Positions 3,894 through 20,993 of a stretch of DNA of 49,376 bases are shown here, in pieces (the first letter of the stretch is position 1; the number at the start of each line of letters is the position of its first letter). The stretch lies in IMG/VR virus record IMGVR_UViG_2531839433_000005, positions 1-49,376 of that record. One strand, written 5' to 3'. The stretch comes from a virus (Duplodnaviria > Heunggongvirae > Uroviricota > Caudoviricetes). Position numbers and translations under genes: made by a program. The notes under the pieces are model-generated. The model was not told the origin of the DNA, searched no databases, and worked only from the letters and a program-made list of their open reading frames with translations.

Positions 3894-4016
3894 TTTGTTT
3901 TAACCTCATGACAGATTTAAGGATGAACAAATCCCTGCCATTGCTGGCATATAAGAATCAAATCTGATGTATTCATTAAGCTGAATGTCGTATTGTGGCA
4001 GTTATTTTATTACTGC

Positions 4017-5022: not shown

Positions 5023-5386
5023 TCGAAATTTCATGGCTAACTGTAACACTCCCATCTGTGGCGGGATGGTTTAAATCGCTGGGATTAATGCCGCACTCAG
5101 TAAAATGGTTCTTAAGGGGTTCTATCCGAATCCCTTTCTTTTTCATTAACAAGCCAAAACCCTTATCAATGATATCCATTAATTCCAGGAAGTATTTTTC
5201 ATGTAAATCCTGGTTATCAGAGAGCTGCTTCTCTTCGTACAGACCGATAAAGGCACGACGCACGTTACCGGATATAGTATCGATGGTTTCTTTTTCTACG
5301 GTACTCAGGTCAAGAGTCGCCAGTTGGGAACGAACTATATTCGCTGCCATTTCCTGGAATTGCATTGGTAAATCTTTAAATTCCAT
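5012..5386 (-). CDS. Hypothetical protein
   Basis: 124-aa ORF, tightly packed with the downstream small leftward ORFs. Confidence 0.45.
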   Translation of the reverse strand: MEFKDLPMQFQEMAANIVRSQLATLDLSTVEKETIDTISGNVRRAFIGLYEEKQLSDNQDLHEKYFLELMDIIDKGFGLLMKKKGIRIEPLKNHFTECGINPSDLNHPATDGSVTVSHEISINH

Positions 5387-5408
5387 TATTAGCCTCGTTG
5401 GTTAGCTA

Positions 5409-5627
5409 TTAACGCGGGCATGTAATCATTCTGGCAATGCTTAATGCCGCTGCTTTTTCCAGCCTGGTGATATCCTGCTCCAGAGCGGACAGATTTTCAG
5501 CCTGCTTAGCCCTGGCTTCATTGGCCCATTTCAGGTCCTGCGCAGCCTTAATTTTCTGGTGCATCCACTCATAAAGTTCATCATCGGTATAGTCTGGCGC
5601 GATGATGACGGGTTCTCGTTTCTGCAT
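5409..5627 (-). CDS. Hypothetical small protein (early-left region)
   Basis: 72-aa ORF in leftward early operon; size and position reminiscent of Kil-type small proteins, but no sequence assignment possible. Confidence 0.45.
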   Translation of the reverse strand: MQKREPVIIAPDYTDDELYEWMHQKIKAAQDLKWANEARAKQAENLSALEQDITRLEKAAALSIARMITCPR

Positions 5628-5656
5628 ACTGATTCCTCGCGGTGCTGCTTCGCTTA

Positions 5657-5785
5657 TCAGCCGTTAGATTTTGCCGGGCTGGAAAGCGCCTGTATAAACT
5701 CACTGAAGCTGAGAGCTTCTTCGCCTTTGGCAAGGCCTTCGAAGTATTCTTCGTAAGCCTTTTCCATGATTGTGTCGAAATCCAT
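5657..5785 (-). CDS. Hypothetical very small protein (42 aa)
   Basis: Short ORF not in the supplied track; AGGTGA Shine-Dalgarno upstream of ATG; fills the gap between neighbouring leftward genes. Confidence 0.3.
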   Translation of the reverse strand: MDFDTIMEKAYEEYFEGLAKGEEALSFSEFIQALSSPAKSNG

Positions 5786-5786
5786 A

Positions 5787-5942
5787 TCACTCACCTGAGT
5801 TTCTTTTCAGCCAGCGACGGGCACCATTTTCGGTTTTAAACGTTTTGCTTTTGGTATACGTCATCGCGGTGAACGTACCGTCCTGGTTGGGGAACACGCC
5901 ACATACCAGAGATTCGTTGTTGCCAAGATCGATAGTATCCAT
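5787..5942 (-). CDS. Hypothetical small protein (51 aa; longer 78-aa form possible to 6023)
   Basis: Internal ATG preceded by GAGG RBS; first gene downstream of the presumed pL region. Confidence 0.35.
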   Translation of the reverse strand: MDTIDLGNNESLVCGVFPNQDGTFTAMTYTKSKTFKTENGARRWLKRNSGE

Positions 5943-6023
5943 GTTGACCTCATTTCCCCTTAACGCCGGGGTAGCGGAACAAAAACCTGCTGCATAGTTA
6001 TTAAAGTTGAACCCTGCCGTCAT

Positions 6024-6234
6024 GTTCTTACGCCTCGGGCTGGCTACTTAACCCCTGACCACTGCCGGGTAACTCGAAGTATTGCCCTGCATTCTGTGGG
6101 GTGGAGTGAAGGAATGAATGAAGTTTAGAAAAATGAACTTTACAGGTCAATGTTTTTTTATCAAAACATTTTAAGCAGGCAGCTGTTAAGCCATCACCAC
6201 GATGGCATACAGTTAATCAAATAGATGAGGTTGG
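6024..6234. promoter_or_regulatory. Presumed leftward early promoter/operator region (pL-like)
   Basis: 210-bp non-coding gap between the cI stop and the first leftward early gene; contains TTTTGAT/ATCAAAA half-site-like motifs similar to those between cI and cro. Confidence 0.3.
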
Positions 6235-6873
6235 TTAAATATCTTGTTGAATTTTAAAGCATACGCCCAATATGCAAGATAGATCATCCAGCATAATTGA
6301 AGGGTAGCGAGGATTCGTGGGGACTAAAAGAATATCCGGCCCTTCTATCTCCAGTTTACGAATGACAGGTGTTGTGGTCCCTTTGGGTAAGGCAAGGACA
6401 ATATTTCCTGGTTGTACGGTTCGATCGGGATCAACAAAAACTGTTGAACCATTTGGGATGGAAACTCCCCCACCAGATGTTGACATACTGTCACTCTCTA
6501 GAACAACTGCAAAGGTATTGGCCGGGATTTCTCCGACAAGCTGCACACAAGAGGTTATTGAGGAATTTTTCATATAATCACTCCAGCTTGCTGCCTGCTG
6601 AAGTGATAGTAGCGGAACCGTTTTTATCGGCGGTAAAGATAGATCAAGCGAATCACCTGTATTTAACTCTCCTCCATTAAGAAGCCAATTTTCGTTTACT
6701 TTCAATATCTTTGCCAGTGAACTTATGTAACGCGAGGACGGCGCTCCTCCACCGTTCATCCATTGACTTACGGAGCCTTTTGATGCGCCAGTGGCATTGA
6801 CAAGGTCTTTGCCTTTCAGGTTTAGCGCATGCATACGTTGGGTTATGCGTTCAGATATTGTTTGCTTGCTCAT
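6235..6873 (-). CDS. cI: CI-type prophage repressor (XRE HTH + S24 LexA-like peptidase domain)
   Basis: 212 aa; N-terminal HTH; C-terminal DSMS Ser motif and downstream Lys (VIRKL) as in LexA/CI autocleavage domains; divergent from a Cro-like gene. Confidence 0.85.
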   Translation of the reverse strand: MSKQTISERITQRMHALNLKGKDLVNATGASKGSVSQWMNGGGAPSSRYISSLAKILKVNENWLLNGGELNTGDSLDLSLPPIKTVPLLSLQQAASWSDYMKNSSITSCVQLVGEIPANTFAVVLESDSMSTSGGGVSIPNGSTVFVDPDRTVQPGNIVLALPKGTTTPVIRKLEIEGPDILLVPTNPRYPSIMLDDLSCILGVCFKIQQDI

Positions 6874-6964
6874 GTTTTGATTTTAAAACACAGATGGTTT
6901 TGTTTCTTGACTTTCTTTGGTTTTGATTATTAAACTTTTGGCGTTCAGTTTTATGGAGCGACTC
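6874..6964. promoter_or_regulatory. Immunity operator/promoter region (oR, pR/pRM-like)
   Basis: Divergent intergenic region; repeated GTTTTGATT(T/A)TTAAAAC-like motifs at 6874..6891 and 6919..6935; candidate -35 TTGACT 6907..6912 and -10 TATTAA 6928..6933 reading toward cro. Confidence 0.4.
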
Positions 6965-7195
6965 ATGAAAAAATCAGAAGTATTAGGCTATTTTGGCGGA
7001 GTTGTTAAAACAGCCGCAGCTCTAGGAACGTCAAAAACCACAGTCAGCATGTGGGGGGAAGAGGTTCCGTGGAAATGGGCGTTGCTAATTCAGGCAGTCA
7101 CTGCCGGGGCGCTCAAATATGAGTTACACATACCGACGGTTGTCATTCCCGGTTCTGATCATAATCCGCCTTCTAACCAAGGGGGGGATTCATGA
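6965..7195 (+). CDS. Cro-like small HTH regulator
   Basis: 76-aa ORF divergent from cI with GGAG RBS; resembles Rac-type YdaS/Cro proteins as recalled. Confidence 0.6.
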   Translation: MKKSEVLGYFGGVVKTAAALGTSKTTVSMWGEEVPWKWALLIQAVTAGALKYELHIPTVVIPGSDHNPPSNQGGDS

Positions 7196-7617
7196 AAATC
7201 AAGCATGAACACATCCGCATGGCGATGAATGCCTGGGCGCATCCGGACGGCGAGAAAGTACCGGCTGCAGAGATTACCAAAGCGTATTTCGAGCTGGGAA
7301 TGACGTTCCCGGAACTGTATGACGACAGCCATCCGGAAGCCCTGGCTCGCAATACCCAGAAAATTTTCCGCTGGGTAGAGAAAGACACCCCTGATGCAGT
7401 TGAAAAAATTCAGGCGTTGTTACCAGCGATCGAAAAGGCAATGCCACCTTTGCTGGTGGCCAGAATGCGCAGCCACAGTTCTGCTTATTTTCGGGAGCTG
7501 GTGGAGACGCGGGAGCGACTGGTGAGAGACGCTGATGATTTTGTCGCAGTGGCAATCGCCGGTTTCAATCAGATGAACCGCGGTGGCCCGGCGGGAAATG
7601 CCGTGGTGATGCACTAA
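7192..7617 (+). CDS. CII-like / YdaT-like regulator
   Basis: 141-aa ORF translationally coupled to cro (ATGA overlap); N-terminus MKIKHEHI.. resembles the Rac YdaT family as recalled. Confidence 0.5.
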   Translation: MKIKHEHIRMAMNAWAHPDGEKVPAAEITKAYFELGMTFPELYDDSHPEALARNTQKIFRWVEKDTPDAVEKIQALLPAIEKAMPPLLVARMRSHSSAYFRELVETRERLVRDADDFVAVAIAGFNQMNRGGPAGNAVVMH

Positions 7618-7640
7618 AAGCACGGTGTTCGGAGTTTTTT

Positions 7641-8588
7641 ATGAGCAGCAAGCTTCATGGTCTTGTCTGGGAAGGGTGTGCCTTCACCGGCATGATCTTA
7701 TCCAGGGTGGCAGTTATGGCTCGCCTTGCAGATTACAGCAATGACGAAGGTGTGTCATGGCCTGCAGTGGAGACCATTCGTCGTCAGATTGGGGCAAAGA
7801 GTGAATCAACGGTTAAAGCTGCGATAGCAGAACTGGAAAAGAACGGCTGGCTGACGAAGGAGGAACGTAAGGTCGGTGGGCGTAATGAAAGCAATATCTA
7901 CCGTCTTAATGTGGAAAAACTCGAAGCAGCAGCAGCGGCAGCGCGTGAGGCATATAAACCGAAAAGAAAAATTAGCCAGGCAAAAAATGACCCGTCAAAT
8001 ATTGCCCCCTCAACGGTTAACCCATCAAATTTTGATGGATCAACCGTTGATAAAAAACAGTCGGATAGGGGGGCGATGGTTGGCCCCGATCCGTCAGTAT
8101 TAAAACCTGATCCGTCAGATAAAAGATCTTTTCGTCCGGAAGCTTCGCAACCGGACATGCAGACGGCTGAACAGGATTTTTTAACCCGACACCCTGACGC
8201 GGTTGTGTTCAGTGCGAAAAAACGCCAGTGGGGTAGCCAGGAAGATTTAGCGTGTGCGCAGTGGATCTGGGGGCGAATCGTGAGTCTTTACGAGCAGGCC
8301 GCCAGCGATGATGGCGAGATTTCGCGACCGAAAGAACCCAACTGGACCGCATGGGCCAACGACGTGCGCACAATGCGGATGCTGGATGGCAGAACTCACA
8401 GACAAATTTGTGAAATGTTTGGTCGGGTGCAGCGGGATCCATTTTGGGTAAAAAATATCATGAGTCCGTCAAAGCTTCGCGAAAAATGGGATGAACTGGT
8501 TATCCGCCTGGGGCGTTCGTCTGTACAGCGTTGTGTGAATCATATTTCTGAGCCGGATACCGAAATTCCGCCGGGGTTCAGGGGGTAA
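7641..8588 (+). CDS. Replication initiation protein (O-like, N-terminal winged-helix)
   Basis: 315-aa ORF directly upstream of the DnaC-like loader; standard lambdoid replication-module position. Confidence 0.6.
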   Translation: MSSKLHGLVWEGCAFTGMILSRVAVMARLADYSNDEGVSWPAVETIRRQIGAKSESTVKAAIAELEKNGWLTKEERKVGGRNESNIYRLNVEKLEAAAAAAREAYKPKRKISQAKNDPSNIAPSTVNPSNFDGSTVDKKQSDRGAMVGPDPSVLKPDPSDKRSFRPEASQPDMQTAEQDFLTRHPDAVVFSAKKRQWGSQEDLACAQWIWGRIVSLYEQAASDDGEISRPKEPNWTAWANDVRTMRMLDGRTHRQICEMFGRVQRDPFWVKNIMSPSKLREKWDELVIRLGRSSVQRCVNHISEPDTEIPPGFRG

Positions 8589-8594
8589 CGGGCC

Positions 8595-9341
8595 ATGAAA
8601 AATATCGCGGCAGGTGGTGTTCTTGAGCGTATCCGTAAGCTGACCCCGCAGCATGTAATCGCGCCGTACCGGACAGTGGACGAGTGGCGCGAGTGGCAAC
8701 TGGCAGAAGGGCGAAAACGTAGCGAGGAGATCAACCGCCAGAATCGCCAGTTGCGGGTGGAAAAAATCCTGAATCGTTCGGGCATCCAGCCTCTGCACAG
8801 CAAATGCTCGTTTGCGAATTATCAGGTGCAGAACGACGGGCAAAAACACGCGCTGAGCCAGGCAAAATCCATCGCTGACGAACTGATGACCGGGTGCACG
8901 AATTTTGTGTTCAGCGGTAAGCCGGGTACCGGAAAGAACCACCTTGCAGCCGCCATTGGCAATCATCTTCTGGCGAAAGGTCGCAGCGTGATTGTGATAA
9001 CGGTGGCTGATGTGATGCTGGCGTTACACAACAGCTACGACAACAAAAACTCAGGCGAAAAATTTTTACAGGGGTTGTGTGATGTTGACCTGCTTGTCCT
9101 GGATGAAATCGGAATGCAGCGGGATACGCGCAACGAGCAGGTCACGCTGAACCAGATAGTCGACCGCAGAACGGCTTCGATGCGTAGTGTCGGAATGCTG
9201 ACGAACCTTAACCACGTAGCGATGAGTACGCTTCTTGGCGAGCGTGTAATGGACCGCATGGTCATGAACGGTGGTCGCTGGGTGAATTTTAACTGGGAGA
9301 GCTGGCGTTCGAATGTCAGACACCTGAGGGTTGTGAAGTAA
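8595..9341 (+). CDS. DnaC-like helicase loader (AAA+ ATPase)
   Basis: Walker A GKPGTGKNHLAAAIG and Walker B DLLVLDEIG motifs; 248 aa. Confidence 0.85.
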   Translation: MKNIAAGGVLERIRKLTPQHVIAPYRTVDEWREWQLAEGRKRSEEINRQNRQLRVEKILNRSGIQPLHSKCSFANYQVQNDGQKHALSQAKSIADELMTGCTNFVFSGKPGTGKNHLAAAIGNHLLAKGRSVIVITVADVMLALHNSYDNKNSGEKFLQGLCDVDLLVLDEIGMQRDTRNEQVTLNQIVDRRTASMRSVGMLTNLNHVAMSTLLGERVMDRMVMNGGRWVNFNWESWRSNVRHLRVVK

Positions 9342-9355
9342 TTTCAGGAGGATTT

Positions 9356-9751
9356 ATGGCGAAACCTTTTTCTCTCGAACAGCGGGAAGAGCTGAAGGCA
9401 CGAATTATCGGGTTGGTACGCAAAAATGAACGCATGACGATGTCGCAGCTGGAGAGAGCGACAGGGGCAGGCTGGCACTCGGTCCGACGCTGCCTTGTGG
9501 ATGTGCTGGCTTGTGGCGATTTATACATGTCCGGGGAATACGGTGTTTTTGCATCAGAGCAGGCGTATCGCGTATGGCGTAAGACACCGGAGAAAAGAAC
9601 CGACCTGACACTGATTCGAAAGTTACCAGACGGAGAAATACGCCGCTACGACAGGAGCCAGAACATAATCTGTCGCGAGTGCCGGAAGAGTGAGGTTATG
9701 CAGCGAGTGCTGGCGTTTTATCAGGGTAATTTTCAGGAGGTGATGGCGTGA
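9356..9751 (+). CDS. Hypothetical protein
   Basis: 131-aa ORF with RBS AGGAGG; overlaps the next gene start. Confidence 0.45.
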   Translation: MAKPFSLEQREELKARIIGLVRKNERMTMSQLERATGAGWHSVRRCLVDVLACGDLYMSGEYGVFASEQAYRVWRKTPEKRTDLTLIRKLPDGEIRRYDRSQNIICRECRKSEVMQRVLAFYQGNFQEVMA

Positions 9752-10044
9752 GGGTGAGAGTCTATATCGCCGGTCCAATGACCGGGTATAAAAATTTCAA
9801 CCGTGAGGCGTTCCACAATGCGGAAGAGGAACTGAAACGGGAAGGGCATACCGTCTTAAACCCGGCAGTACTTCCGGACGGGCTGACACAGCCGCAGTAC
9901 ATGGATATCTGCATGGCGATGATTCGTTGCGTGGATGCGATTTACATGCTGCAAGGCTGGCAGCGGTCAGCAGGCGCTAAGGCGGAACTGGCGCTGGCGG
10001 AGAAGCTGGGGCATGCAGTTATTTTCCAGGAGGAGGTACAGTGA
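9748..10044 (+). CDS. DUF4406-like protein (nucleoside 2-deoxyribosyltransferase-like fold)
   Basis: 98 aa; N-terminal VYIAGPMTG motif characteristic of this family as recalled. Confidence 0.5.
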   Translation: MRVRVYIAGPMTGYKNFNREAFHNAEEELKREGHTVLNPAVLPDGLTQPQYMDICMAMIRCVDAIYMLQGWQRSAGAKAELALAEKLGHAVIFQEEVQ

Positions 10045-10325
10045 ATATCGACGCAACAATGACGATTGGTACGGCCCTCAATACGGGGCTGGCGCTTCTT
10101 GGTTGGTGCTACGTCATGTTCTGCTCATGGCGGTGGCTGTCACTGATGTTACTGAAAAAATGGAATAAACGCTGTAAACAGACGCAGCGGCAGAAGGCAA
10201 TGAATGCGTTTTTTGAGACCTTCGATATTGACAGTATGGAGCCAGGAGAGCCAGCTCGCGTGATTAGCAGAGGAGACGTTGTAATTCTTGTATACCGGAG
10301 TGAAGAGAAATATGAGCGAAATTAA
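10041..10325 (+). CDS. Hypothetical small membrane protein
   Basis: GTG start overlapping the previous stop; hydrophobic N-terminal segment. Confidence 0.4.
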   Translation: MNIDATMTIGTALNTGLALLGWCYVMFCSWRWLSLMLLKKWNKRCKQTQRQKAMNAFFETFDIDSMEPGEPARVISRGDVVILVYRSEEKYERN

Positions 10326-10424
10326 CTATCAGGCACTGCGTGAAGAAGAGAAAGCATAATCCAAATCTGAATAATTAAATTCAGCACTGTAAATAAAATT
10401 TAATCCTTAACCGGAGGAGTATCT

Positions 10425-10637
10425 ATGTTAAATACACAAAAAAACATTAACGCGGAAAAATATAACGAGTGGGTGAAAAAATTTTCTGAGCAGATTTTTA
10501 AAATTACTGGCGACGAGAATGCGGCAAAAAGTGAATTAGAACCATGGACACCTGAAGGAGCCAACCCAAATTATTGCTGGTGGGATGTTGATCCAGTTGA
10601 TGCTGCAAATGAAGCCATGAGTTACCACAACGATTAA
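10425..10637 (+). CDS. Hypothetical small protein (AT-rich)
   Basis: 70-aa ORF with GGAGGAG RBS; convergent with the AT-rich two-gene cassette. Confidence 0.45.
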   Translation: MLNTQKNINAEKYNEWVKKFSEQIFKITGDENAAKSELEPWTPEGANPNYCWWDVDPVDAANEAMSYHND

Positions 10638-10675
10638 TGTCAGGAGGCCGCCCGAAAGGGCGGCTGTTCCGCTGT

Positions 10676-11230
10676 TCAATTATCTAAAATTGTGCTAAAT
10701 CTTTTTATTACCATTAAGAACGTTATAACAGTGATAAAAAAGGATGCATAGGATAAAAAGCTAACAATATATGCAGGTGCGCGAAAATACCATTTCATTA
10801 AATCTACTGCATTGTCAGGCAGGAAATATATTATCACTGAAAATATAACCAATACTATTGAAGTTAATATTGCATAAGCGACGTTGTGGCATAACTGCTC
10901 ATATATGGTTTTGTTAGTGTTTAATGATATCAATTTGTCTCGGGATTTGTTTCCTTCAATTATGTCTGATATCTTAGTGATGGTTTTTTGTTTTTGTTCA
11001 TAAATCATTATTACTGCACTCATTAATAGTGCTGTTGTAATAGCCCCGAAGTTAACGAAGACGGAAGCAATTGCCGGTTTCATTATTCCGTATGTCCAGC
11101 ACAGAACGAAAGAAAGAGATAACGGAACAATAAAATGTACGATAATGTCGCTCATCAACATTGTTCCACGCTGATCTGACATTGTTTTGTAGTGTTTTAT
11201 TATTACACCCAGCACATTTATTTTATTCAT
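10676..11230 (-). CDS. Multi-pass integral membrane protein (candidate effector of two-gene cassette)
   Basis: 184 aa with about four hydrophobic helix-length segments; start overlaps upstream stop (ATGA); strongly AT-rich codon usage unlike flanking phage genes. Confidence 0.6.
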   Translation of the reverse strand: MNKINVLGVIIKHYKTMSDQRGTMLMSDIIVHFIVPLSLSFVLCWTYGIMKPAIASVFVNFGAITTALLMSAVIMIYEQKQKTITKISDIIEGNKSRDKLISLNTNKTIYEQLCHNVAYAILTSIVLVIFSVIIYFLPDNAVDLMKWYFRAPAYIVSFLSYASFFITVITFLMVIKRFSTILDN

Positions 11231-12159
11231 ATAATCACCCCTTTGTTTCCGCTATGCAGTTCTAACAATATATCATTAGAAAGGTTTTTTATCGTGTCAT
11301 GAAGTGCTGTTAGATCAGGTATGCCTGTTAATGGGTCGATTTTTAAATCATTATCATCTAACTCTGCGGAAATTCCTTTTTTTAGTATGGTCTCATAATT
11401 GAAAACGACAGTCCGACTGCCGAGTTGTAAGCTTACTTTTATTGCATCACATTTATCTTCAATAATCTCAATGATGTTTCCTATATTCTTGTTTCTTAAA
11501 TCCCTGAAACTTCCGAACATGCCATTGTTTGCTTTTATTATTAAGTCTGTCTTGATGTTTGTTTTGTTTTGACCAAAGGAATCAGCAATGTCTTTTGGTG
11601 CTTTATATCCTTGAGCCTTAATTTGTTTTAATTCGGAATTGAGAATATATTGAGGGATTTTCTTATGATGTAATGGATTGATTCTTGCTTCGAGTTGAAA
11701 TTTGTTTTTTAGATATTCAGTGATAGAATCAGAAAGGACACCTCGAGCAGAAATATTATCGCAAGAGTGGAATGCAATAATTCCTTCTTCAAGGGTGTCT
11801 GGTAGGTATATTAAAATATAACGTTCTTTGAGTGTTACATCATAAGCAGTTGTCCTATAGTGGATTTTTTTGAGTTTTACATCTTTTATTTCACTGCTTT
11901 CTCCATATTTCCCAACTTTTATATAACCATATATAATTTTCTTTGAGTTATCAAAGTGAAGTTTAGCGTGTTGTTCCAGAGATATTTTAGTTTTGGATAC
12001 GCCAAACTCGATAGGGGTGTTTTTATATAGAGTAAAATAATCAACAAAAAGTTCATATGCCGTTTTTTTATTACTTAAACCCAATTCATTAAGTTTTTTG
12101 CTGGCTCGACTGCCTTTATGGGTCAATACGCGGAATGAATAGAAATTAACGCTGTGCAT
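11227..12159 (-). CDS. Cytoplasmic protein of unknown function (candidate sensor of two-gene cassette)
   Basis: 310-aa Lys/Ile/Asn-rich ORF, no recognisable catalytic motif; translationally coupled to downstream membrane protein. Confidence 0.6.
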   Translation of the reverse strand: MHSVNFYSFRVLTHKGSRASKKLNELGLSNKKTAYELFVDYFTLYKNTPIEFGVSKTKISLEQHAKLHFDNSKKIIYGYIKVGKYGESSEIKDVKLKKIHYRTTAYDVTLKERYILIYLPDTLEEGIIAFHSCDNISARGVLSDSITEYLKNKFQLEARINPLHHKKIPQYILNSELKQIKAQGYKAPKDIADSFGQNKTNIKTDLIIKANNGMFGSFRDLRNKNIGNIIEIIEDKCDAIKVSLQLGSRTVVFNYETILKKGISAELDDNDLKIDPLTGIPDLTALHDTIKNLSNDILLELHSGNKGVII

Positions 12160-12489
12160 GAAAAGTCCTTTTGAACATATAGGAGTATACTAGAACATAA
12201 ATAGATGCAATGCATAAAGGAAAAGCTACCGCAGGGCGAACTCACCCACCGATAACTCTTAACTGGTTGTTTGTAAAAGATAATACATAAATTTGGGTCT
12301 GTGTAAAGAGGTAAGCATCGTCAGGGCAAGGGAGATGTGTTAGGCAATATTGGTAAAATTTACGTTGAGGATAAAAACGGTTTGCGGGAAAAGGAGAGTT
12401 AAGTAGAATTGCTGCGGGTGCTTGAGGCTATCTGTCTCAGGCATGAACACCAAAAGGCAGATAGAGAAAAGCCCCAGTTAACATTACGC

Positions 12490-12560
12490 GTCCTGCAAGA
12501 CGCCTAACATTAATCTGAGGCCCAATCTATGTCTCACAAATGTAGGTTAGCCTCTTACGT
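12490..12560 (-). ncRNA. Putative Sok-like antisense RNA (position inferred, not seen directly)
   Basis: In hok/sok loci the antitoxin RNA is antisense to the mok translation-initiation region (mok ATG at 12529); coordinates approximate. Confidence 0.25.
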
Positions 12561-12585
12561 GCCGAAAGGCAAGGAGAAGCAGGCT

Positions 12586-12741
12586 ATGAAGCAGCAAAAG
12601 GCGATGTTAATCGCCCTGATCGTCATCTGTTTAACCGTCATAGTGACGGCACTGGTAACGAGGAAAGACCTCTGCGAGGTACGAATCCGAACCGGCCAGA
12701 CGGAGGTCGCTGTCTTCACAGCTTACGAACCTGAGGAGTAA
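12586..12741 (+). CDS. hok: Hok/Gef-family type I toxin
   Basis: 51-aa product MKQQKAMLIALIVICLTVIVTALVTRKDLCEVRIRTGQTEVAVFTAYEPEE matches the Hok/Gef family (HokD/RelF-like as recalled); upstream in-frame 70-codon extension from 12529 corresponds to a mok-like leader. Confidence 0.85.
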   Translation: MKQQKAMLIALIVICLTVIVTALVTRKDLCEVRIRTGQTEVAVFTAYEPEE

Positions 12742-12808
12742 GAGACCAGGCGGGGGCGAAATCCCTCGCCACCTCTGATGTGTCAGGCATCCTCAACGCA
12801 CCCGCACT

Positions 12809-12833
12809 TAACCCGCTTCGGCGGGTTTTTTAT
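12809..12833 (+). terminator. Rho-independent terminator (copy 1)
   Basis: Hairpin AACCCGC-TTCG-GCGGGTT followed by T-run. Confidence 0.6.
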
Positions 12834-12880
12834 TGGTTGACAAAATTATGAATATGCACCAATATCTTGGTTGACAAAAG
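12834..12880 (+). promoter_or_regulatory. Candidate promoter with direct-repeat operator
   Basis: TTGGTTGACAAAA at 12834..12846 and 12867..12880 (33 bp apart); -35 TTGACA 12837..12842, candidate -10 CAATAT 12860..12865. Confidence 0.4.
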
Positions 12881-12914
12881 TCGTTTTTTGCACGGATTAG
12901 GCGGAGAAGTGTCT

Positions 12915-13508
12915 ATGCAGAACCATCCATTCCCTTGGGAGTTCTTTCCTGAGTTAACAGAGGAGCGTTTAACCATTATAGCTGAGGAGTTGCTCAGGAT
13001 ACAGGATATTACTCATGAGTTATTGTCATCGCCCTATGATGATAATTACACTCGTGGTGGTTGTACATTTGGGCGTCAGCGGCAGGCGTTGCTACAAATG
13101 TGCGTACGAAAGACATATGACTGGTTAAGACTACTTAATCCTGGCATGGATCTTACGTTTTCAATTGGGAATGTCCCTATTCGTTTCTTTACTGATGACG
13201 CAGATAACCCCAAGAAACGCGGTTTTTTCAAAAGAAATGATGCTGATCGACTCTTTGAGTCAGAGGAGACTACTCCAACTATGCATCGCTTTGTGGTTGA
13301 AAAGCCTGAATTTGAAGGCGAGGGTGGTAGAGTCATTTTTAATGGCTATAACGTGTTTGGTGAGATCGTGTCAACTTGGACATATGGTGCGGACCGTGTT
13401 GTTATGCTGAACTCTGTCGATGATGTACCTCCAGCACCGGTACCTATCGAACTAGAACCTATCAGTGCGTCTAAGACTGAGAAGGAAAAGAAACAAAATA
13501 GCAAATAG
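12915..13508 (+). CDS. Hypothetical protein (module gene A)
   Basis: 197 aa from ATG with GGAG RBS (TTG at 12867 is an alternative start); no recognisable motif. Confidence 0.55.
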   Translation: MQNHPFPWEFFPELTEERLTIIAEELLRIQDITHELLSSPYDDNYTRGGCTFGRQRQALLQMCVRKTYDWLRLLNPGMDLTFSIGNVPIRFFTDDADNPKKRGFFKRNDADRLFESEETTPTMHRFVVEKPEFEGEGGRVIFNGYNVFGEIVSTWTYGADRVVMLNSVDDVPPAPVPIELEPISASKTEKEKKQNSK

Positions 13509-13518
13509 TGGGTGAAAT

Positions 13519-14640
13519 GTGTTTAACGGTACTAATTTAAGACTTGCTCGTCTGTATCACGAGCTATCTCTGGAGCAGGTTGCTGAGAAGGTTGAAAAAA
13601 CACGCCAGTATGTACAGCGACTGGAGTCTGGTTCAGCTACTCCATCCCCAGAGCTTATAAATAAATTAGCCGAGGTTTTGCGCGTGAAGCCCGCCTTTTT
13701 CGAAGGGCAGGAACATTCTCCTGTTAATGAAGAGATTGTACATTTTCGTAAACGCGCCTCGACAAGGATGTCAACGAAGCTATCAACACTCGCTAAGGCT
13801 GAGTTTTATCGTCGTTTTATTGATGTATTTGAAGATAACCTTAATTTGTCACCTGTTCGATTTCCTGAATTTCGTGTCCATACACAAGAAGATATCGAGC
13901 GAGCGGCAGAAAAATGTCGTATTGAGTGGGGCTTAGGCTTTGGCCCAATTGAAAATATGACTCGCCTTGCCGAGAAACTTGGGGCGTTTGTTACTTCATT
14001 TGACTCCGTTTCGGATGAAGTAGATGCACTGTCTGTTCCTCTACGAAGGCCTTTTATTGTTCGAAATACAGCTAAAAATTCACCTTGTAGGCAACGCTTT
14101 GATATTGCTCATGAGGTTGCCCATTTGATTCTTCATGAAGGAATTTCTACTGGGGATAGATTAACTGAATCCCAGGCAAACCGTTTTGCCTCTGCTCTGT
14201 TGCTTCCCAGAACGTCGATGGCGAAATATTTTCCAAGACCTGTGGGGGGGAGGATAAATTGGCAGGGACTAAGCCAATTTAAGTTGACATGGAAAGTAAG
14301 TAAGGCTGCCATTGTTTACAGGGCTCATCAATTAGGACTTTTGACTGATGAGCAGTACAGAACTGCATTTATGGGGTTGAAACGGAAAGGGGAAGCTATT
14401 GATGAAAAAGAAGATTATCTAATCCCTCATGAGCGTCCTGAGTTATTCCGTCGGGCTTTATCGTTTTTATTTGAAGAGTTAGGATACGACCCACAGCGTA
14501 TAGCTGATGAAATGGATATAGAAGTGGACATTTTTTATGAGTTAGCAGGAGATGATCTTCCTGCGGTTCATGAACTGCCAGGAAGTGGTGATGTTGTTTC
14601 ACTACAATCTTACCGAACTCTTAGAGGCAAAATTCACTAG
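13519..14640 (+). CDS. XRE-family HTH fused to ImmA/IrrE-type zinc metallopeptidase (module gene B)
   Basis: N-terminal HTH (LSLEQVAEKVEKTRQYVQRLESG); HExxH motif HEVAHLILHE; GTG start 10 nt after the upstream stop. Confidence 0.75.
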   Translation: MFNGTNLRLARLYHELSLEQVAEKVEKTRQYVQRLESGSATPSPELINKLAEVLRVKPAFFEGQEHSPVNEEIVHFRKRASTRMSTKLSTLAKAEFYRRFIDVFEDNLNLSPVRFPEFRVHTQEDIERAAEKCRIEWGLGFGPIENMTRLAEKLGAFVTSFDSVSDEVDALSVPLRRPFIVRNTAKNSPCRQRFDIAHEVAHLILHEGISTGDRLTESQANRFASALLLPRTSMAKYFPRPVGGRINWQGLSQFKLTWKVSKAAIVYRAHQLGLLTDEQYRTAFMGLKRKGEAIDEKEDYLIPHERPELFRRALSFLFEELGYDPQRIADEMDIEVDIFYELAGDDLPAVHELPGSGDVVSLQSYRTLRGKIH

Positions 14641-14643
14641 GCA

Positions 14644-14668
14644 TAACCCGCTTCGGCGGGTTTTTTGT
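14644..14668 (+). terminator. Rho-independent terminator (copy 2, same hairpin as 12809..12833)
   Basis: AACCCGCTTCGGCGGGTTTTTT repeated. Confidence 0.6.
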
Positions 14669-14741
14669 TTTACGTATTCTGGTTTACAATCTACAGGCCA
14701 GCCTGAACAACTGGCACCTGCTGCGCCAGCAGAGAAAACCG

Positions 14742-15014
14742 ATGGCGCACAATACCAAACATCACAATTCTGATACCGACCTTGCCAGCTGGCACGGGCG
14801 GCGTTCTCATACATTCAAATATGACTGGTACCAGCATGCTCCATGCACTGAAGAACAGGCCGAATGGCTGATTCAGAACTACCGCAGGCGTGGGTACGAC
14901 TTTCAGAAAGACCTCAGCCCTGACTTCCGACACTGGATAATTTCTGTCAGGCTCCCTTATTCCGAACGCCCACCGCGTCCGTCCCGCACATTCCAGCAAC
15001 GCATCTGGAGGTAA
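14742..15014 (+). CDS. Hypothetical protein
   Basis: 90-aa ORF immediately upstream of and adjacent to the DUF968 gene. Confidence 0.4.
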   Translation: MAHNTKHHNSDTDLASWHGRRSHTFKYDWYQHAPCTEEQAEWLIQNYRRRGYDFQKDLSPDFRHWIISVRLPYSERPPRPSRTFQQRIWR

Positions 15015-15015
15015 C

Positions 15016-16062
15016 GTGCGGGTATTACTTCGACCTGTTCTGGTGCCGGAACTTGGGGTGGTTATCGTTAAGCCAGGTCGTGAATCCATGCAGGTATTCC
15101 ATAACGGCAGAGTGCTGGTTGAACCGGAGCCAAAAAGCATGCGCGGTCTGCCGTCCGGAGTCGTTCCTGCTGTTCGCCAGCCGCTGGCGGAGGATAAATC
15201 ATTACTGCCATTTTTCAGCGATGAGCGGGTGATTCGTGCTGCTGGTGGTGCTGGTGCATTGTCTGACTGGCTGTTACGCCACGTTAAATCCTGCCAGTGG
15301 CCTCATGGTGACTATCATCACAGTGAAACCGTCATACATCGTTATGGTACCGGCGCAATGGTGTTGTGCTGGCACTGCGACAACCAGCTGCGTGACCAGA
15401 CATCCGAATCACTCGAGCAACTTGCTCATCAAAACCTGTCAGCATGGATGATTGACGTCATACGCCATGCAATGAATGGCACGCAGGAGCGGGAATTATC
15501 GCTGGCTGAATTATCTTGGTGGGCAACCATAAATAACGTAGCGGACGCACTACCGGAGACGGTATTACGTCGTTCGCTGGGATTGCGCGCGGAAAAAATT
15601 CGCTCAGTATACCGCGAGAGCGACATCGTGCCGGGAGAGCAGACTGCCACCAGCATACTGAAGCAGCGCACAAAAAATCTTGCGCCGCTGCCTCACGCCC
15701 ACCAGCAAAACCCGCCACAGGAAAAGACGGTGGTCAGCATTGCTGTTGATCCGGAGTCTCCGGAATCTTTCATGAAACGACCTAAACGTCGCCGCTGGGT
15801 TAACGAGAAATACACACGCTGGGTGAAGACACAGCCGTGTGCGTGTTGTGGTAAGCCAGCCGACGATCCCCATCACCTGATTGGTCATGGTCAGGGCGGA
15901 ATGGGGACAAAATCTCACGATATTTTTACGCTACCGCTGTGTCGGGAGCATCACAACGAGCTTCATGCGGATCCGCTGGCGTTCGAAGAAAAGCATGGTT
16001 CTCAGGTTGATTTAATTTTTCGTTTTCTTGATCACGCCTTTGCAACTGGCGTGCTTGGGTAA
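15016..16062 (+). CDS. DUF968/YdfU-like protein with C-terminal HNH-type nuclease motif
   Basis: 348 aa; C-terminal CACCGK..HHLIGHGQGGMGTKSHD..CREHHNELH Cys/His cluster; position equivalent to the nin region. Confidence 0.6.
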   Translation: MRVLLRPVLVPELGVVIVKPGRESMQVFHNGRVLVEPEPKSMRGLPSGVVPAVRQPLAEDKSLLPFFSDERVIRAAGGAGALSDWLLRHVKSCQWPHGDYHHSETVIHRYGTGAMVLCWHCDNQLRDQTSESLEQLAHQNLSAWMIDVIRHAMNGTQERELSLAELSWWATINNVADALPETVLRRSLGLRAEKIRSVYRESDIVPGEQTATSILKQRTKNLAPLPHAHQQNPPQEKTVVSIAVDPESPESFMKRPKRRRWVNEKYTRWVKTQPCACCGKPADDPHHLIGHGQGGMGTKSHDIFTLPLCREHHNELHADPLAFEEKHGSQVDLIFRFLDHAFATGVLG

Positions 16063-16074
16063 AAGAGGTGACTG

Positions 16075-16434
16075 ATGCTCATAGATTTGGTTTTACCTTA
16101 CCCGCCGACGGTGAACACTTACTGGCGACGCCGTGGCAGCACATATTTTATCTCGGAGGAGGGAAAGCGTTATCGCCGTGATGTGGCGCTTATTGTTCGC
16201 CAGCAGCGACTGAAATTAAAGCTGTCCGGACGGCTGGCGATAAAGGTGATTGCAGAGCCACCGGATAAACGTCGTCGTGACCTGGACAATATCCTGAAAG
16301 CACCACTGGATGCACTGACACATGCGGGGTTGCTTATCGACGACGAGCAGTTTGATGAAATCAATATTGTGCGCGGTCAGCTCGTTCCTGGTGGGCGACT
16401 GGGGATAAAAATCACAGAATTGGGGTGCGCATGA
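16075..16434 (+). CDS. rusA: RusA-family Holliday junction resolvase
   Basis: 119 aa; conserved RRRDLDN and acidic residues as in RusA. Confidence 0.8.
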   Translation: MLIDLVLPYPPTVNTYWRRRGSTYFISEEGKRYRRDVALIVRQQRLKLKLSGRLAIKVIAEPPDKRRRDLDNILKAPLDALTHAGLLIDDEQFDEINIVRGQLVPGGRLGIKITELGCA

Positions 16435-17120
16435 ATAACCAGTATTTACAGTTTGTGCGTGAGCAGCTCATTATCGCCACCGCTGATTTGAGTGGGGCAA
16501 CAAAAGGTCAGCTTGAAGCCTGGCAGGAGAATGCCATGTTTGATACAGGGCGTTACAGGCGTAAAAAAATCCGGTACCGAGATGAAGTGACCGGAAAAAT
16601 GATTACGCGGGATAATCCACCAATCCCGGGGAAACAATCGCTGGCGAAGGGGACGTCAATTCCTCTGGTCAGTCCGGTTGAGTTTTCGACATCATCGTGG
16701 CGGCGGGCTGTTCTGTCTCTTGAAGAACATCATAAAGCCTGGTTGTTATGGTGTTACAGCGGGAGTATTTGTTGGGAATATCAGATCGCGATAACACAGT
16801 GGGCGTGGAATGAATTTAATACTCAATCCGGTACCAGAAAAATTGCAGGGAAAACGCAGGAACGCCTGAAAAAATTAATCTGGCTGGCGGCGCAGGCAGT
16901 AAAAGCAGAACTTTTTGGTGGGGAAGGTTATGAATACCAGGAGCTGGCATTACTGGCGGGAGTGACAACTAAAAACTGGTCCAAAACATTTACTCGTCAC
17001 TGGGTTGCAATGAAACACATTTTTCACCGACTGGATAGTGAGGCTTTATTGTTTGTAATGAGAACACGTTCAAAACAAAAGGCGGCATTTTCAAAGCAAA
17101 GTGTTGCAAAAGTAGATTGA
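16425..17120 (+). CDS. Putative late-gene antiterminator Q
   Basis: 231-aa ORF immediately upstream of a promoter/terminator pair, tRNAs and lysis genes (canonical Q position); family assignment by position only. Confidence 0.5.
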   Translation: MRMNNQYLQFVREQLIIATADLSGATKGQLEAWQENAMFDTGRYRRKKIRYRDEVTGKMITRDNPPIPGKQSLAKGTSIPLVSPVEFSTSSWRRAVLSLEEHHKAWLLWCYSGSICWEYQIAITQWAWNEFNTQSGTRKIAGKTQERLKKLIWLAAQAVKAELFGGEGYEYQELALLAGVTTKNWSKTFTRHWVAMKHIFHRLDSEALLFVMRTRSKQKAAFSKQSVAKVD

Positions 17121-17132
17121 AAGGCATATATT
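17104..17132 (+). promoter_or_regulatory. Candidate late promoter pR'
   Basis: -35 TTGCAA 17104..17109, 17-nt spacer, -10 TATATT 17127..17132, overlapping the end of the Q ORF. Confidence 0.4.
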
Positions 17133-17185
17133 TCATGCAAATCTGATATTTTGCCGATTTTGTACGTGATGGCAAAAGCAAACAA

Positions 17186-17212
17186 AACCCGCCCACAAGC
17201 GGGTTTTTTTGT
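17186..17212 (+). terminator. Rho-independent terminator (tR'-like)
   Basis: CCCGC-CCACAA-GCGGG hairpin followed by a 7-T run, about 55 nt downstream of the candidate pR'. Confidence 0.6.
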
Positions 17213-17330
17213 GCCACTTATCTCGGATAGAAATGGTGAATGCGCTGGTGGAGGAAGTAAGGGTAATTTTTAACCAGGTGATTCTTGAATGCTTGCAACA
17301 TTTATTTCGTAACGTTATTATCCTGCGCCC

Positions 17331-17406
17331 GGCCCTTTAGCTCAGTGGTGAGAGCGAGCGACTCATAATCGCCAGGTCGCTGGTTCAAATCCAGCAAGGG
17401 CCACCA
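17331..17406 (+). tRNA. tRNA with CAT anticodon (Ile2/Met type)
   Basis: 76 nt; acceptor GGCCCTT/AAGGGCC, D-arm TAGCTCAGTGG, anticodon loop CTCATAA, T-loop GGTTCAAATCC, 3' CCA; resembles E. coli ileX as recalled. Confidence 0.75.
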
Positions 17407-17407
17407 A

Positions 17408-17484
17408 CCGTCACCAGTTCATCAGGAAAGAGCGTCAACCCTTTAAGTTGAGTGTGCGAGGTTCGAGTCCCCGGTGGCGGTCCA
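17408..17484 (+). tRNA. Atypical tRNA-like element (possible anticodon TTT; may be a pseudo-tRNA)
   Basis: Acceptor CCGTCAC/GTGGCGG with one G-U pair, T-loop TTCGAGT, 3' TCCA; D-arm and anticodon loop (C at position 33) are non-canonical. Confidence 0.35.
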
Positions 17485-17486
17485 GT

Positions 17487-17562
<76 letters not shown>

Positions 17563-17565
17563 TAT

Positions 17566-17640
<75 letters not shown>

Positions 17641-17914
17641 GCATTTGAAATAAGCCTTATTGTATTGCAGCACTGGCGTATTTTTTATTACGTGGGAGCA
17701 GGTTGTTTTAAGAGACATTCTGTTCTCTGGCTATAATTTGAGGCCAGGTGTAGCCTCAGTGCTGATTTTTTTACGACAGCAGAATGGTGCATTATCGGTG
17801 GAGATTTTGTATTTCCTGGCAGGGTCGGTGATGCATCATTCCGATGTTGTAAGCATCGCTCAGAATAACGTTGAGATTAATCGCGTACTAAGCAAAACCT
17901 GGAAATACATCCTT

Positions 17915-17942
17915 AACCGCCGCACCAGGCGGTTTTTTTTAT
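17915..17942 (+). terminator. Rho-independent terminator
   Basis: CCGCC-GCACCA-GGCGG hairpin followed by 8 T. Confidence 0.5.
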
Positions 17943-18107
17943 TCATTTTTTTTTCATGGCTCGCTACGGCGGGCCTTTTTCATATCCTCGCCACACCCGG
18001 CGCATATCACATCAAATAACGCCGCGCAAAAGGCATCTGCGGGTGCCTTTGACGGGGTGTTTTTACGGGCCGCTGGTGGCCCTTTTTTATTTACAGGAGA
18101 AAAACGT

Positions 18108-18497
18108 ATGTCTGAACCCTTATCCGGTTCCGGCACGGCTGCGGCGCTCGGTGGGGCGACGGTGTACGGGCTGTTTACCGGAACGGATTTCGGGATTGTG
18201 TTTGGTGCGTTCGCCGGGGCGTTATTTGTGGCAACGATGCCGCAGGCGCTTTCAGTCTGGCGTGTGGTGGCGCATTTTTTGGTGTCGTTTATCGTCGGCG
18301 TGCTGGGGGCGCGCGTGCTGTCAGCCTGGATTGCATCAAAAACAGGGTATGACGGTACATCGGCAGATGCGCTGTGTGCGGTGCTGGTATCGGTGGTGTC
18401 GGTGAAGATTCTGTCGTTCATCCACCAGCAGGATATTGCATCGCTGGTGTCCGGTGTGTTCTCCCGTCTGCGGGGTGGAGGCGGTAATGTTAAGTAA
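18108..18497 (+). CDS. Putative holin (multi-TM membrane protein)
   Basis: 129 aa from ATG with RBS AGGAGA; several Gly/Ala-rich hydrophobic segments; first gene of lysis cassette; a GC hairpin with T-run lies immediately upstream. Confidence 0.55.
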   Translation: MSEPLSGSGTAAALGGATVYGLFTGTDFGIVFGAFAGALFVATMPQALSVWRVVAHFLVSFIVGVLGARVLSAWIASKTGYDGTSADALCAVLVSVVSVKILSFIHQQDIASLVSGVFSRLRGGGGNVK

Positions 18498-18762
18498 CCT
18501 TCCCGGATTACTGAATGTGGTGTTAAGCACGGTTATCGTGCTGACGCTCTTTTTTTATCGTCGTGGTGATTCCAGACATAAACCGCTGATGTCGTGGCTG
18601 GCCTGGCTGCTGATGCTGCTGTATGCCTTTGCGCCACTTTGTTATCTGTGTGGTCGCTTTCCACCCGGTAACTGGCTGGTCGTCCTGATTAACCTGGTGT
18701 TCTGCGTGCTGGTGATACGAGCACGCGGGAACGTATCAAAAATCCTTTCATTACGGAGGTGA
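18487..18762 (+). CDS. Second small membrane protein of lysis cassette (holin/antiholin-like)
   Basis: 91 aa, two or three hydrophobic helices; start overlaps holin stop, end overlaps endolysin start. Confidence 0.5.
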   Translation: MLSNLPGLLNVVLSTVIVLTLFFYRRGDSRHKPLMSWLAWLLMLLYAFAPLCYLCGRFPPGNWLVVLINLVFCVLVIRARGNVSKILSLRR

Positions 18763-18764
18763 GT

Positions 18765-19142
18765 ATGCCCGGTAAATTCAGATTCAGTCGTCGAAGTGAG
18801 AAAAATCTGGAGGGCGTCAAACCACAGCTGGTTGCTGTTGTTCGCCGTGCGCTGGAGCTGACGGAGGTTGACTTCGGTATTACGGAAGGCCTGCGCAGTA
18901 AGTATCGCCAGAAGCAGCTGGTCGCGGAAGGGAAAAGCCAGACCATGAACAGCCGCCACCTGACCGGTGATGCGGTGGATGTTGTGGCCTACATTGGTAG
19001 CCAGGTGTCATGGGACTGGCCTCTGTACGAGAAAATCGCGCAGGCATTTAAGCAGGCTGCCGCAGAGCTGGGAACTGCCATCGAATGGGGCGGGGACTGG
19101 AAAACACTGAAAGACGGGCCTCACTTTCAGTTGAAGCGCTAA
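18765..19142 (+). CDS. Endolysin, peptidase M15 family (L-alanyl-D-glutamate peptidase type)
   Basis: About 125 aa; motif SRHLTGDAVD typical of M15 zinc peptidases; GGAGG RBS; alternative GTG start at 18759. Confidence 0.75.
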   Translation: MPGKFRFSRRSEKNLEGVKPQLVAVVRRALELTEVDFGITEGLRSKYRQKQLVAEGKSQTMNSRHLTGDAVDVVAYIGSQVSWDWPLYEKIAQAFKQAAAELGTAIEWGGDWKTLKDGPHFQLKR

Positions 19143-19156
19143 TAACCAGGTGGTTT

Positions 19157-19339
19157 ATGAGCCGAAAACACTGGACACACAGAATGCCGCGAACGGCGGC
19201 GAAATGGGCACTGGTAGCGATACTGGTGCCTTTTTTCCTGGTGGGATGCGTTAGCCTGGATAAGGTGCGCCAGCTTTTCGATACGGCCTCGCAGGTCTGC
19301 GAAATTGTCGAAAGTGCCAGGCAGTGTATGCAGAACTGA
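19157..19339 (+). CDS. Small lipoprotein (possible spanin-like lysis accessory)
   Basis: 60 aa; signal peptide with lipobox FLVGC; directly follows the endolysin. Confidence 0.5.
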   Translation: MSRKHWTHRMPRTAAKWALVAILVPFFLVGCVSLDKVRQLFDTASQVCEIVESARQCMQN

Positions 19340-19402
19340 TCGCCTGTAAGAGCAGAATATTGTTGAATCTAAGTAAGCGGCTCGTCAGAACCGTATTGAT
19401 AT

Positions 19403-20974: not shown

Positions 20975-20993
20975 ATCCTCACTTTACAACGGG

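Follow-up and report, generated by a model that had tools for sequence, protein, structure and literature searches.

Does the small toxin gene in the replication-to-Q region of a Rac-like lambdoid prophage belong to a complete type I toxin–antitoxin locus, and what may such a locus do for the prophage that carries it? The question is raised by the window, i.e. the whole stretch of 49,376 nucleotides that we analysed (IMG/VR record IMGVR_UViG_2531839433_000005), in which an earlier note claimed a Hok/Sok-type type I locus at 12420-12833. The claim is borne out, with coordinates essentially as given there. Only the start has to be moved, to a predicted transcript start at ~12416 with its -10 hexamer TAGAAT further upstream (12404-12409), while the rest of the extent stands. 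As read from its sequence, the segment 12381–12833 is a complete hok/sok-family type I toxin–antitoxin cassette of the hokD/hokW type, as found in lambdoid prophages, and we put the probability that it is an intact hok/sok member working by the canonical mechanism at about 0.9. The sequence elements on which this reading stands are collected in Table 1, and these elements, their conservation and their covariation are direct observations. A decayed or IS-disrupted hok locus was considered and ruled out, as the reading frame, the Shine-Dalgarno sequence, tac, fbi and the Sok promoter are all intact.

Table 1. Positions of the cassette elements and of the downstream gene pair in the window
Feature	Position	Strand	Description	Basis
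Putative hok mRNA promoter	12381..12409	+	-35 TTTGCG (12381-12386), 17-nt spacer, -10 TAGAAT (12404-12409)	Position and hexamers aligned in relatives
Predicted full-length hok mRNA	12416..12833	+	~418 nt	Putative start to terminator T run
tac element	12416..12427	+	5' end, GGGUGCUUGAGG; partner fbi, alternatively ucb	MFE and covariation
5' leader hairpin	12428..12464	+	10 bp, CUAUCUGUCU / AGGCAGAUAG	MFE
Predicted Sok-type antisense RNA	12467..12537	-	~71 nt	Transfer of the 933W sokW misc_RNA feature by alignment
ucb-like element	12469..12475	+	AAGCCCC; alternative tac partner after 3' processing	Rfam model structure line
mok-like ORF	12529..12741	+	70 codons, in frame with hok, shares the hok stop codon	ORF list
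Sok promoter	12544..12572	-	-35 TTGCCT (12567-12572), 17-nt spacer, -10 TAACCT (12544-12549)	Minus-strand reading and 933W identity
hok Shine-Dalgarno	12573..12576	+	GGAG, 9 nt before the hok ATG	Read from the sequence
hok toxin gene, HokD allele	12586..12741	+	51 aa + stop	Pfam HOK_GEF, PHROG 251, identity to K-12 hokD
UACG motif	12724..12727	+	Tyr47 codon TAC + G	Candidate TadA A-to-I editing site
3' UTR hairpin	12749..12770	+	GGCGGGGG-CGAAAU-CCCUCGCC	MFE
fbi (fold-back inhibition) element	12791..12803	+	CCUCAACGCACCC	MFE, haplotypes, pair counts
Intrinsic terminator	12810..12833	+	AACCCGC-UUCG-GCGGGUU + T run	Terminator scan (hairpin 12810..12827)
197-aa protein	12915..13508			PADLOC RmrT, 308 bits
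373-aa HTH + M78-peptidase protein	13519..14640			PADLOC RmrA, 665 bits

For comparison, 53 related loci were collected from one-genome-per-species contigs, and 41 distinct full-length loci, coming from Escherichia, Kluyvera, Photorhabdus, Citrobacter, Pantoea and Erwinia, were aligned by MAFFT. The toxin itself is readily recognised as the 51-aa Hok/Gef-family protein described in the earlier note. The peptide that the ORF list gives from the internal ATG at 12586, MKQQKAMLIALIVICLTVIVTALVTRKDLCEVRIRTGQTEVAVFTAYEPEE, matches Pfam HOK_GEF with 82.9 bits (E 1.2e-23; cut-off 22) and PHROG 251 (“MokW-like host killing”), and the NCBIfam Hok models yield only matches below their cut-off (48.5 bits vs 73). 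Alignment, proposed as a check for a broken hok frame, finds the frame intact and the coding DNA identical to that of K-12 hokD. The in-frame leader ORF is present as well, in the same mok–hok arrangement as in mokW of 933W, and its ATG is kept in 38 of the 41 aligned sequences; L032 has ATA instead, and in L044 and L055 the ATG is shifted by a few columns. Judging from this layout, the mok start upstream of hok and the overlap of the two frames would allow translational coupling. The GGAG of hok lies directly upstream of the opposite-strand Sok -35 box, 1 nt from it, and the CAAGGAG block is nearly invariant across the 41 loci. HokD is toxic when overexpressed, and TadA A-to-I editing in a UACG context has been reported for the hokB, hokC, hokD and hokE mRNAs (bioRxiv 10.1101/2025.08.07.668861). 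The hexamer TACGAA from 12724 is invariant (41 of 41 aligned loci), and by analogy editing at this candidate site would recode Tyr47 to Cys.

The RNA part of the cassette was examined from the leader onwards. The hok leader (12416..12591, plus strand) matches the Rfam sok family RF01794 over model positions 1-157 of 157 (118.6 bits, gathering threshold 59, E 5e-28), and this match recurs in the gathering scan of the whole window. Since it falls on the strand of the hok mRNA, the match reports the conserved hok leader, which holds the complement of Sok. The 5' end of the mRNA was set by position 1 of the Rfam model together with the alignment to the R1-type hok mRNA start, and the 3' end was set by the terminator. 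Upstream of this start the hok promoter appears to be weak. A consensus sigma-70 promoter scan did not find it, its match being weak and below the threshold, and for this reason we count it as inferred; it was placed from its position and from TATAAT-like hexamers aligned in relatives, which have TATAAT, TACAAT or TATATT at the -10 position, with the conserved GGG(U/C)GCUUG start following after 6-7 nt. At the other end, the terminator/fold-back-like hairpin seen earlier proves to be real and to comprise a terminator hairpin with its T run and a separate fold-back element (fbi). The 3' UTR hairpin is kept in related loci with a variable loop. A sub-threshold match of Rfam isrK on the hok 3' UTR (31.8 bits, gathering threshold 50) was taken as hairpin-plus-terminator resemblance and rejected.

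In hok mRNAs of this family the two ends are expected to meet, and the predicted fold agrees with this. The MFE of 12416-12833 is -165.9 kcal/mol (z = -7.6 vs shuffles), and the structure pairs nt 1-12 (tac) with fbi in a 12-bp helix with one bulged C. Compensatory changes across the 41 related loci support this long-range pairing. They are found at positions 4, 11 and 12 of the helix: at position 4, 25 loci have U-A and 12 have C-G, a switch that occurred in several distinct lineages, and position 12 turns from G-C to A-U in 5 loci. Besides the haplotype of the window (Table 1), the alignment contains for example those of Photorhabdus (tac GGGCGCUUGAGA, fbi UCUCAAGCGCCC), Kluyvera (tac GGGUGCUUGAGA, fbi UCUCAACGCACCC) and Citrobacter (tac GGGUGCUUGAAG, fbi CUUCAUAGCACCC). 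In total 90.9% of the tac-fbi cells are paired, compared with 42-55% after displacing the 3' partners by 1-3 columns, and 28 cells are changed on both sides. The covariation score was reached by 0 of 500 shuffles, a control that is not to be read as a probability, and the loci share descent. The outer half of the helix is only 81% paired in the MAFFT alignment; this low score arises because the one-base bulge is absent from Photorhabdus-type loci, which puts them out of register by one column. When pairing was counted per sequence with a bulge allowed, 10.5-12 of the 12 pairs are formed in all but two of the 41 loci, namely L049 (10) and the R1-type L004 (9.5).

Two further helices of the leader were counted in the same way. 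The 5' leader hairpin (helix 3 of the covariation count) reaches 92% pairing, and three of its pairs show changes on both sides. In the 7-bp tac-ucb helix 99% of the cells are paired in the 41 loci and the pairs are invariant, so that covariation is uninformative on this helix. The tac base that has no partner in Rfam's alternative tac-ucb helix is position 4, which covaries. The MFE structure of a 3'-trimmed transcript (12416-12788) shows a local 5' hairpin instead of the expected tac-ucb helix, a result that does not tell the active conformations apart. The local hairpin resembles the metastable 5' hairpin described for R1. From what is known of R1, the active mRNA would be the refolded state.

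For the antisense gene, the earlier note proposed to look for a sok promoter on the minus strand. Such a promoter is present: its 29 bp, identical in 933W, are those of the experimentally validated sokW promoter, so that it was placed through identity to the mutated sokW -10 and not through consensus strength. The consensus sigma-70 promoter scan did not find it, because the -10 TAACCT matches the consensus at only 3 of 6 positions. The predicted Sok start is at 12537, 7 nt downstream of the -10. The predicted RNA consists of a single-stranded 5' tail of ~16 nt (GUGAGACAUAGAUUGG), a long hairpin and a 3' end with a U tail (GGGGCUUUU); it folds with -33.7 kcal/mol (z = -5.7) and, by its sequence, would be complementary to the mok translation-initiation region. 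The hairpin is ~16-18 nt longer than the Rfam consensus, a property common to the hokD/hokW clade and some Kluyvera loci. For the homologue in Sp5 the function of these parts is known from experiment (Takada et al. 2021, PMC8621323). In the “pro-less” construct, the change of the -10 from TAACCT to GAGCCG (primer YO-421) abolished protection against HokW, and sokW supplied in trans restored it. [quoted passage not shown]

In order to see how widespread the cassette is, we searched with a 471-bp stretch (12380-12850). Of 5426 complete E. coli genomes, 4939 have a match, which reaches ≥80% coverage in 3909, with a median of 2 places and up to 10 places in a matching genome. Six E. coli chromosomes contain it with 100% identity, and the feature is annotated there as hokD. 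Matches were also found in 450 plasmid-collection records and in 101 phage records, including 933W and VT2-Sakai, in which it is annotated as mokW/hokW/sokW. The locus, shared by these 3909 E. coli genomes and by many Stx and lambdoid phages, is thus nothing new: RefSeq has it as hokD, it goes by hokW/sokW in Stx phages, and experiments have characterised it. As a discovery it is therefore of little value, being a textbook hok/sok cassette with the well-characterised close homologue hokW-sokW. For annotation it is more useful, because PGAP gives only the 51-aa CDS and mok, the Sok gene, the promoter and tac/fbi can now be placed to the base.

The closest characterised relative is hokW-sokW (mokW) of the Stx2 phages 933W and Sp5/VT2-Sakai, which shares the architecture and aligns with 92% of the 471-bp query at 93.8% nucleotide identity. 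In 933W not only the Sok promoter but also tac, fbi and the extended Sok hairpin are identical to the window, and 47 of the 51 residues of HokW (92%) are shared. The four differing residues lie at the C-terminus (VDYESEK in HokW, TAYEPEE here). Several substitutions are found in the Sok 5' tail, mok codons 2-4 and the hairpin, and the 3' terminator is different, with homology ending at ~12813. The place in the phage genome also differs from that in 933W, the cassette of the window being placed after the replication genes and before Q, with rmrTA as its neighbour.

The window was also compared with K-12 hokD (relF of the relBEF operon, Qin prophage). The two do not differ in the coding DNA of hok and hardly differ in the 3' UTR, fbi and terminator (~12567 to 12830), and the relative place of the gene, ahead of DUF968 and Q, is the same as well. 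However, the K-12 locus has no tac, ucb, Sok gene with its promoter or mok start, and contains relE instead. Nothing upstream of ~12567 is shared, which makes the window copy the complete, autonomous version and the K-12 copy a 5'-truncated one; the cassette thus illustrates the ancestral, autonomous form of the truncated hokD/relF. A relBE-hokD arrangement as in the K-12 Qin prophage was looked for and rejected, as the DNA upstream of hok is the native hok leader and not relE.

More distant relatives keep the same plan. R1 hok/sok and the copies on F-type plasmids arrange their elements as here (tac, leader hairpin, ucb, Sok target, in-frame mok, hok, 3' hairpin and fbi), the Rfam model match is common to R1 and the window, and the R1 Sok promoter lies at the same place (TTGCGC-17-TATCCT vs TTGCCT-17-TAACCT here). 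R1 Hok, however, is only 42% identical to Hok here. Compared with R1, the window has a Sok hairpin longer by ~16-18 nt, a shorter loop in the leader hairpin and an fbi helix with a one-base bulge, and it is carried by a prophage, whereas the R1 copy is plasmid-borne. Chromosomal loci of the hokC (gef)/sokC type have a Hok with 80-82% identity, the same tac and the fbi CUUCAACGCACCC; they differ by a short Sok hairpin, a near-consensus Sok -35 (TTGACC) and a fixed chromosomal site that is not a prophage.

The surroundings of the cassette were then compared with complete genomes. Positions 1..25850 of the window are 99.996% identical to E. coli 504239 (NZ_CP025859.1), in which they belong to a Rac-like lambdoid prophage adjoining ompW. 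The cassette is situated between the replication genes and the DUF968/RusA/Q genes. In this prophage cro is frameshifted and an IS66-family element is inserted in the late region, between the lysis and terminase genes; the host prophage is probably defective. According to the gene list no relBE-like genes are adjacent, in agreement with the earlier note, although a toxin–antitoxin-type defence pair, RmrT/RmrA, follows downstream. This rmrT/rmrA pair (RosmerTA, an experimentally supported defence system; bioRxiv 10.1101/2022.05.11.491447) begins 82 bp past the T run of the hok terminator. Upstream there are two overlapping minus-strand genes that are AT-rich (GC 0.32-0.33 vs 0.515 for the window) and encode proteins of 184 aa and 310 aa. 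Both match only PHROGs of unknown function; searches of Pfam, NCBIfam and PADLOC gave no match, nor did a sequence search of the PDB, and their single-sequence AlphaFold models (pLDDT 58.8 and 30.3) are too poor for a fold search. Among 5426 genomes, 22 contain the hok-rmrT junction and 37 the junction with the upstream genes; in most of the others, homology to the cassette stops at ~12396 and ~12829-12835, with variable flanks. These ends and the rare junctions indicate that the cassette is a discrete module in a mosaic accessory region. With hok, RosmerTA and the two-gene operon of unknown function, the replication-to-Q region of this Rac-like prophage is marked as an accessory/defence hot spot.

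A mechanism can be proposed for the cassette, all steps of which, including transcription, 3' processing and toxicity in this strain, we infer from R1 hok/sok and Sp5 hokW-sokW. The weak promoter would give a stable mRNA of ~418 nt, in which tac is locked to fbi, so that ribosomes and Sok are both kept off. Slow trimming from the 3' end would remove fbi, and the 5' end would then refold and expose the mok start and the Sok target. As long as the cassette is transcribed, the minus-strand TTGCCT/TAACCT promoter would supply a short-lived 71-nt Sok that pairs across the mok start, blocks translation of mok and hence the coupled translation of hok, and leads to degradation of the duplex. Once the supply of Sok stops, be it by loss of the DNA, by shut-off of host transcription by an infecting phage or by prophage induction, the stable mRNA would be translated, and the 51-aa Hok would insert in the inner membrane and kill or lyse the cell.

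Stabilisation of the element and phage exclusion, the roles suggested in the earlier note, are plausible; the candidate roles are not mutually exclusive, and each of them taken alone is rather unlikely. The sole direct experiment on a near-identical prophage copy, that on hokW-sokW of Sp5, points to help with lysis and phage release on induction (PMC8621323). In this case SOS induction would make Sok disappear, and Hok would act before holin and endolysin and speed up lysis and release. In Sp5 the sokW RNA vanished after mitomycin C and production of HokW was RecA-dependent (Takada et al. 2021, PMC8621323), and the phage yield was halved in the hokW-sokW deletion strain (PMC8621323); the same Sok promoter and a 92% identical toxin are present here. 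We can hold this role only tentatively for the window copy, since the cro frameshift and the IS66-family element make productive induction doubtful and weaken a part in lysis here, and the cassette occupies the replication-to-Q accessory region instead of the 933W position. Addiction, in which post-segregational killing stabilises the prophage or its accessory segment against excision or deletion, is a comparably tentative proposal. It is the classical function of plasmid hok/sok, the 933W annotation proposes “prophage maintenance”, and the architecture required for it is complete. On the other side, the Sp5 deletion had no effect on growth and stabilisation was not reported (PMC8621323), and cross-reacting Sok could come from paralogous cassettes resident in the same cell; the best-matching genome has 3 places. 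In addition, intact chromosomal hok loci failed in tests of post-segregational killing, and a recent preprint summarises earlier work in which intact chromosomal hokA, hokB and hokC failed in plasmid-stabilisation tests (bioRxiv 10.1101/2025.08.07.668861); an intact sequence is therefore no guarantee of the killing phenotype.

The same failures would suit an intact cassette with no measurable phenotype, i.e. a selfish passenger module of mosaic lambdoid prophages that has neither a stabilising nor a defence effect. Its behaviour as a discrete mobile module with variable flanks and rare junctions (22 downstream and 37 upstream) and its number of up to 10 copies per genome fit this idea too. We regard it as unlikely, because the regulatory elements are all conserved with compensatory changes, which implies ongoing selection on the RNA mechanism, and because effects of the near-identical hokW-sokW could be measured in an Sp5 lysogen. 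Abortive infection, or phage exclusion, is similarly improbable. It would begin with the shut-off of transcription by a phage, after which the labile Sok decays and Hok kills the cell, and the cassette would be part of a small prophage defence island. The RmrT/RmrA pair detected by PADLOC directly downstream speaks for such an island, and R1 hok/sok on a high-copy plasmid lowered the plating of T4 (as cited in PMC8621323), though the effect was modest. However, when thousands of hok loci were surveyed, they were not enriched in the vicinity of defence systems (bioRxiv 10.1101/2025.08.07.668861), and the rarity of the hok-rmrT junction (22 of 5426 genomes) suggests that the adjacency is probably a chance product of mosaicism.

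Finally, the variation among eight hokD/hokW-type sequences is concentrated in three places, the loop of the leader hairpin, the loop of the 3' UTR hairpin and positions 12520-12536, the last of which encode the Sok 5' tail and mok codons 2-4. It is conceivable, if quite improbable, that this hot spot in the Sok 5' tail and mok codons 2-4 serves as a specificity code, which would give each co-resident prophage (up to 10 cassettes per genome) a private, non-cross-protecting module for addiction or abortive infection, here maybe within one defence island together with RosmerTA and the AT-rich operon.

The two genes lying directly 3' of the hok cassette are, as judged from their sequences, a RosmerTA-type toxin-antitoxin/defence pair. 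In the RefSeq annotation of the matching genome, their labels go no further than "hypothetical protein" and "helix-turn-helix domain-containing protein", and of 5426 E. coli genomes only 22 contain the hok-rmrT junction. The stretch that separates the rmrT-like gene from the hok terminator contains two copies of the 11-mer GGTTGACAAAA, 34 bp apart, both of which include the consensus TTGACA. These repeats may be the promoter of rmrTA, or an operator to which RmrA, the HTH antitoxin, would bind.

The accessory region containing hok and the RosmerTA-type genes also includes an operon of two genes upstream of hok, encoding proteins of 184 aa and 310 aa, in which stop and start overlap at ATGA. 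This operon is AT-rich (GC content 0.32–0.33, versus 0.515 for the window). Neither protein has a sequence match in Pfam, NCBIfam, PADLOC or PDB; the sole matches are PHROGs 15250 and 15676, both with unknown function, and the quality of single-sequence structure models was too low for use. Because it shares the accessory region with hok and RosmerTA, the operon could be a candidate for uncharacterised moron or defence genes.

Features of the window around the hok cassette and other RNA genes
Feature	Window position	Strand	Basis or remark
rmrT-like gene, 197 aa	12915..13508	+	PADLOC RmrT, 308 bits
rmrA-like gene, 373 aa, HTH_3 + Peptidase_M78	13519..14640	+	PADLOC RmrA, 665 bits
11-mer GGTTGACAAAA, two copies	12835..12845 and 12869..12879	+	read from sequence
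Operon gene	10676..11230	-	184-aa/310-aa pair with 11227..12159
Operon gene	11227..12159	-	184-aa/310-aa pair with 10676..11230
DicF sRNA	4418..4468	-	69.6 bits
Three phage-borne tRNAs, downstream of Q	17331..17637	+	annotated Ile, Thr, Gly in matching genome
IS009 RNA-family match, near the window's end	49130..49333	+	RNA-family scan

The element that carries the cassette is a Rac-like lambdoid prophage adjoining ompW, and window 1..25850 corresponds to 57366..83215 of NZ_CP025859.1 (E. coli 504239). In this prophage, cro is frameshifted, the LexA-family (cI-like) gene is short (112 aa), dicB is partial, and an IS66-family element (ISCro1) lies between the lysis and terminase genes; from these lesions, the prophage is therefore probably defective.

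In the hok mRNA, the 3' UTR (hairpin and terminator; window 12750..12831, + strand) gave a sub-threshold Rfam match to isrK, an Hfq-binding sRNA of a Salmonella prophage, at 31.8 bits against a gathering threshold of 50 (E = 1.2e-4, local search), which is probably a mere hairpin-plus-terminator likeness. The motif TACGAA (Tyr47 codon plus G; window 12724..12729, + strand) shows no variation across the 41 hok loci of the alignment, the R1 type included. A-to-I editing by TadA was reported in the UACG context of Hok mRNAs, where it would recode Tyr to Cys (bioRxiv 10.1101/2025.08.07.668861), and the motif fits this context as a candidate editing site.

In a comparison of eight hokD/hokW-type cassettes that are nearly identical elsewhere, substitutions concentrate in window 12520..12536, with 6 of the 10 columns in 12526–12535 being variable. 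This segment encodes the 5' single-stranded tail of Sok, the predicted antisense RNA, together with codons 2–4 of mok, and its variation might limit cross-protection between several cassettes of one genome. One hokD-type paralogue, L007 from E. coli ECMA0423 (CP178302.1, 1947710–1949062), specifies a Hok of 100% identity but has diverged at its 5' end, where GACTGCATGTGGCT replaces the tac sequence GGGTGCTTGAGGCT; the tac element of this copy seems to be damaged.
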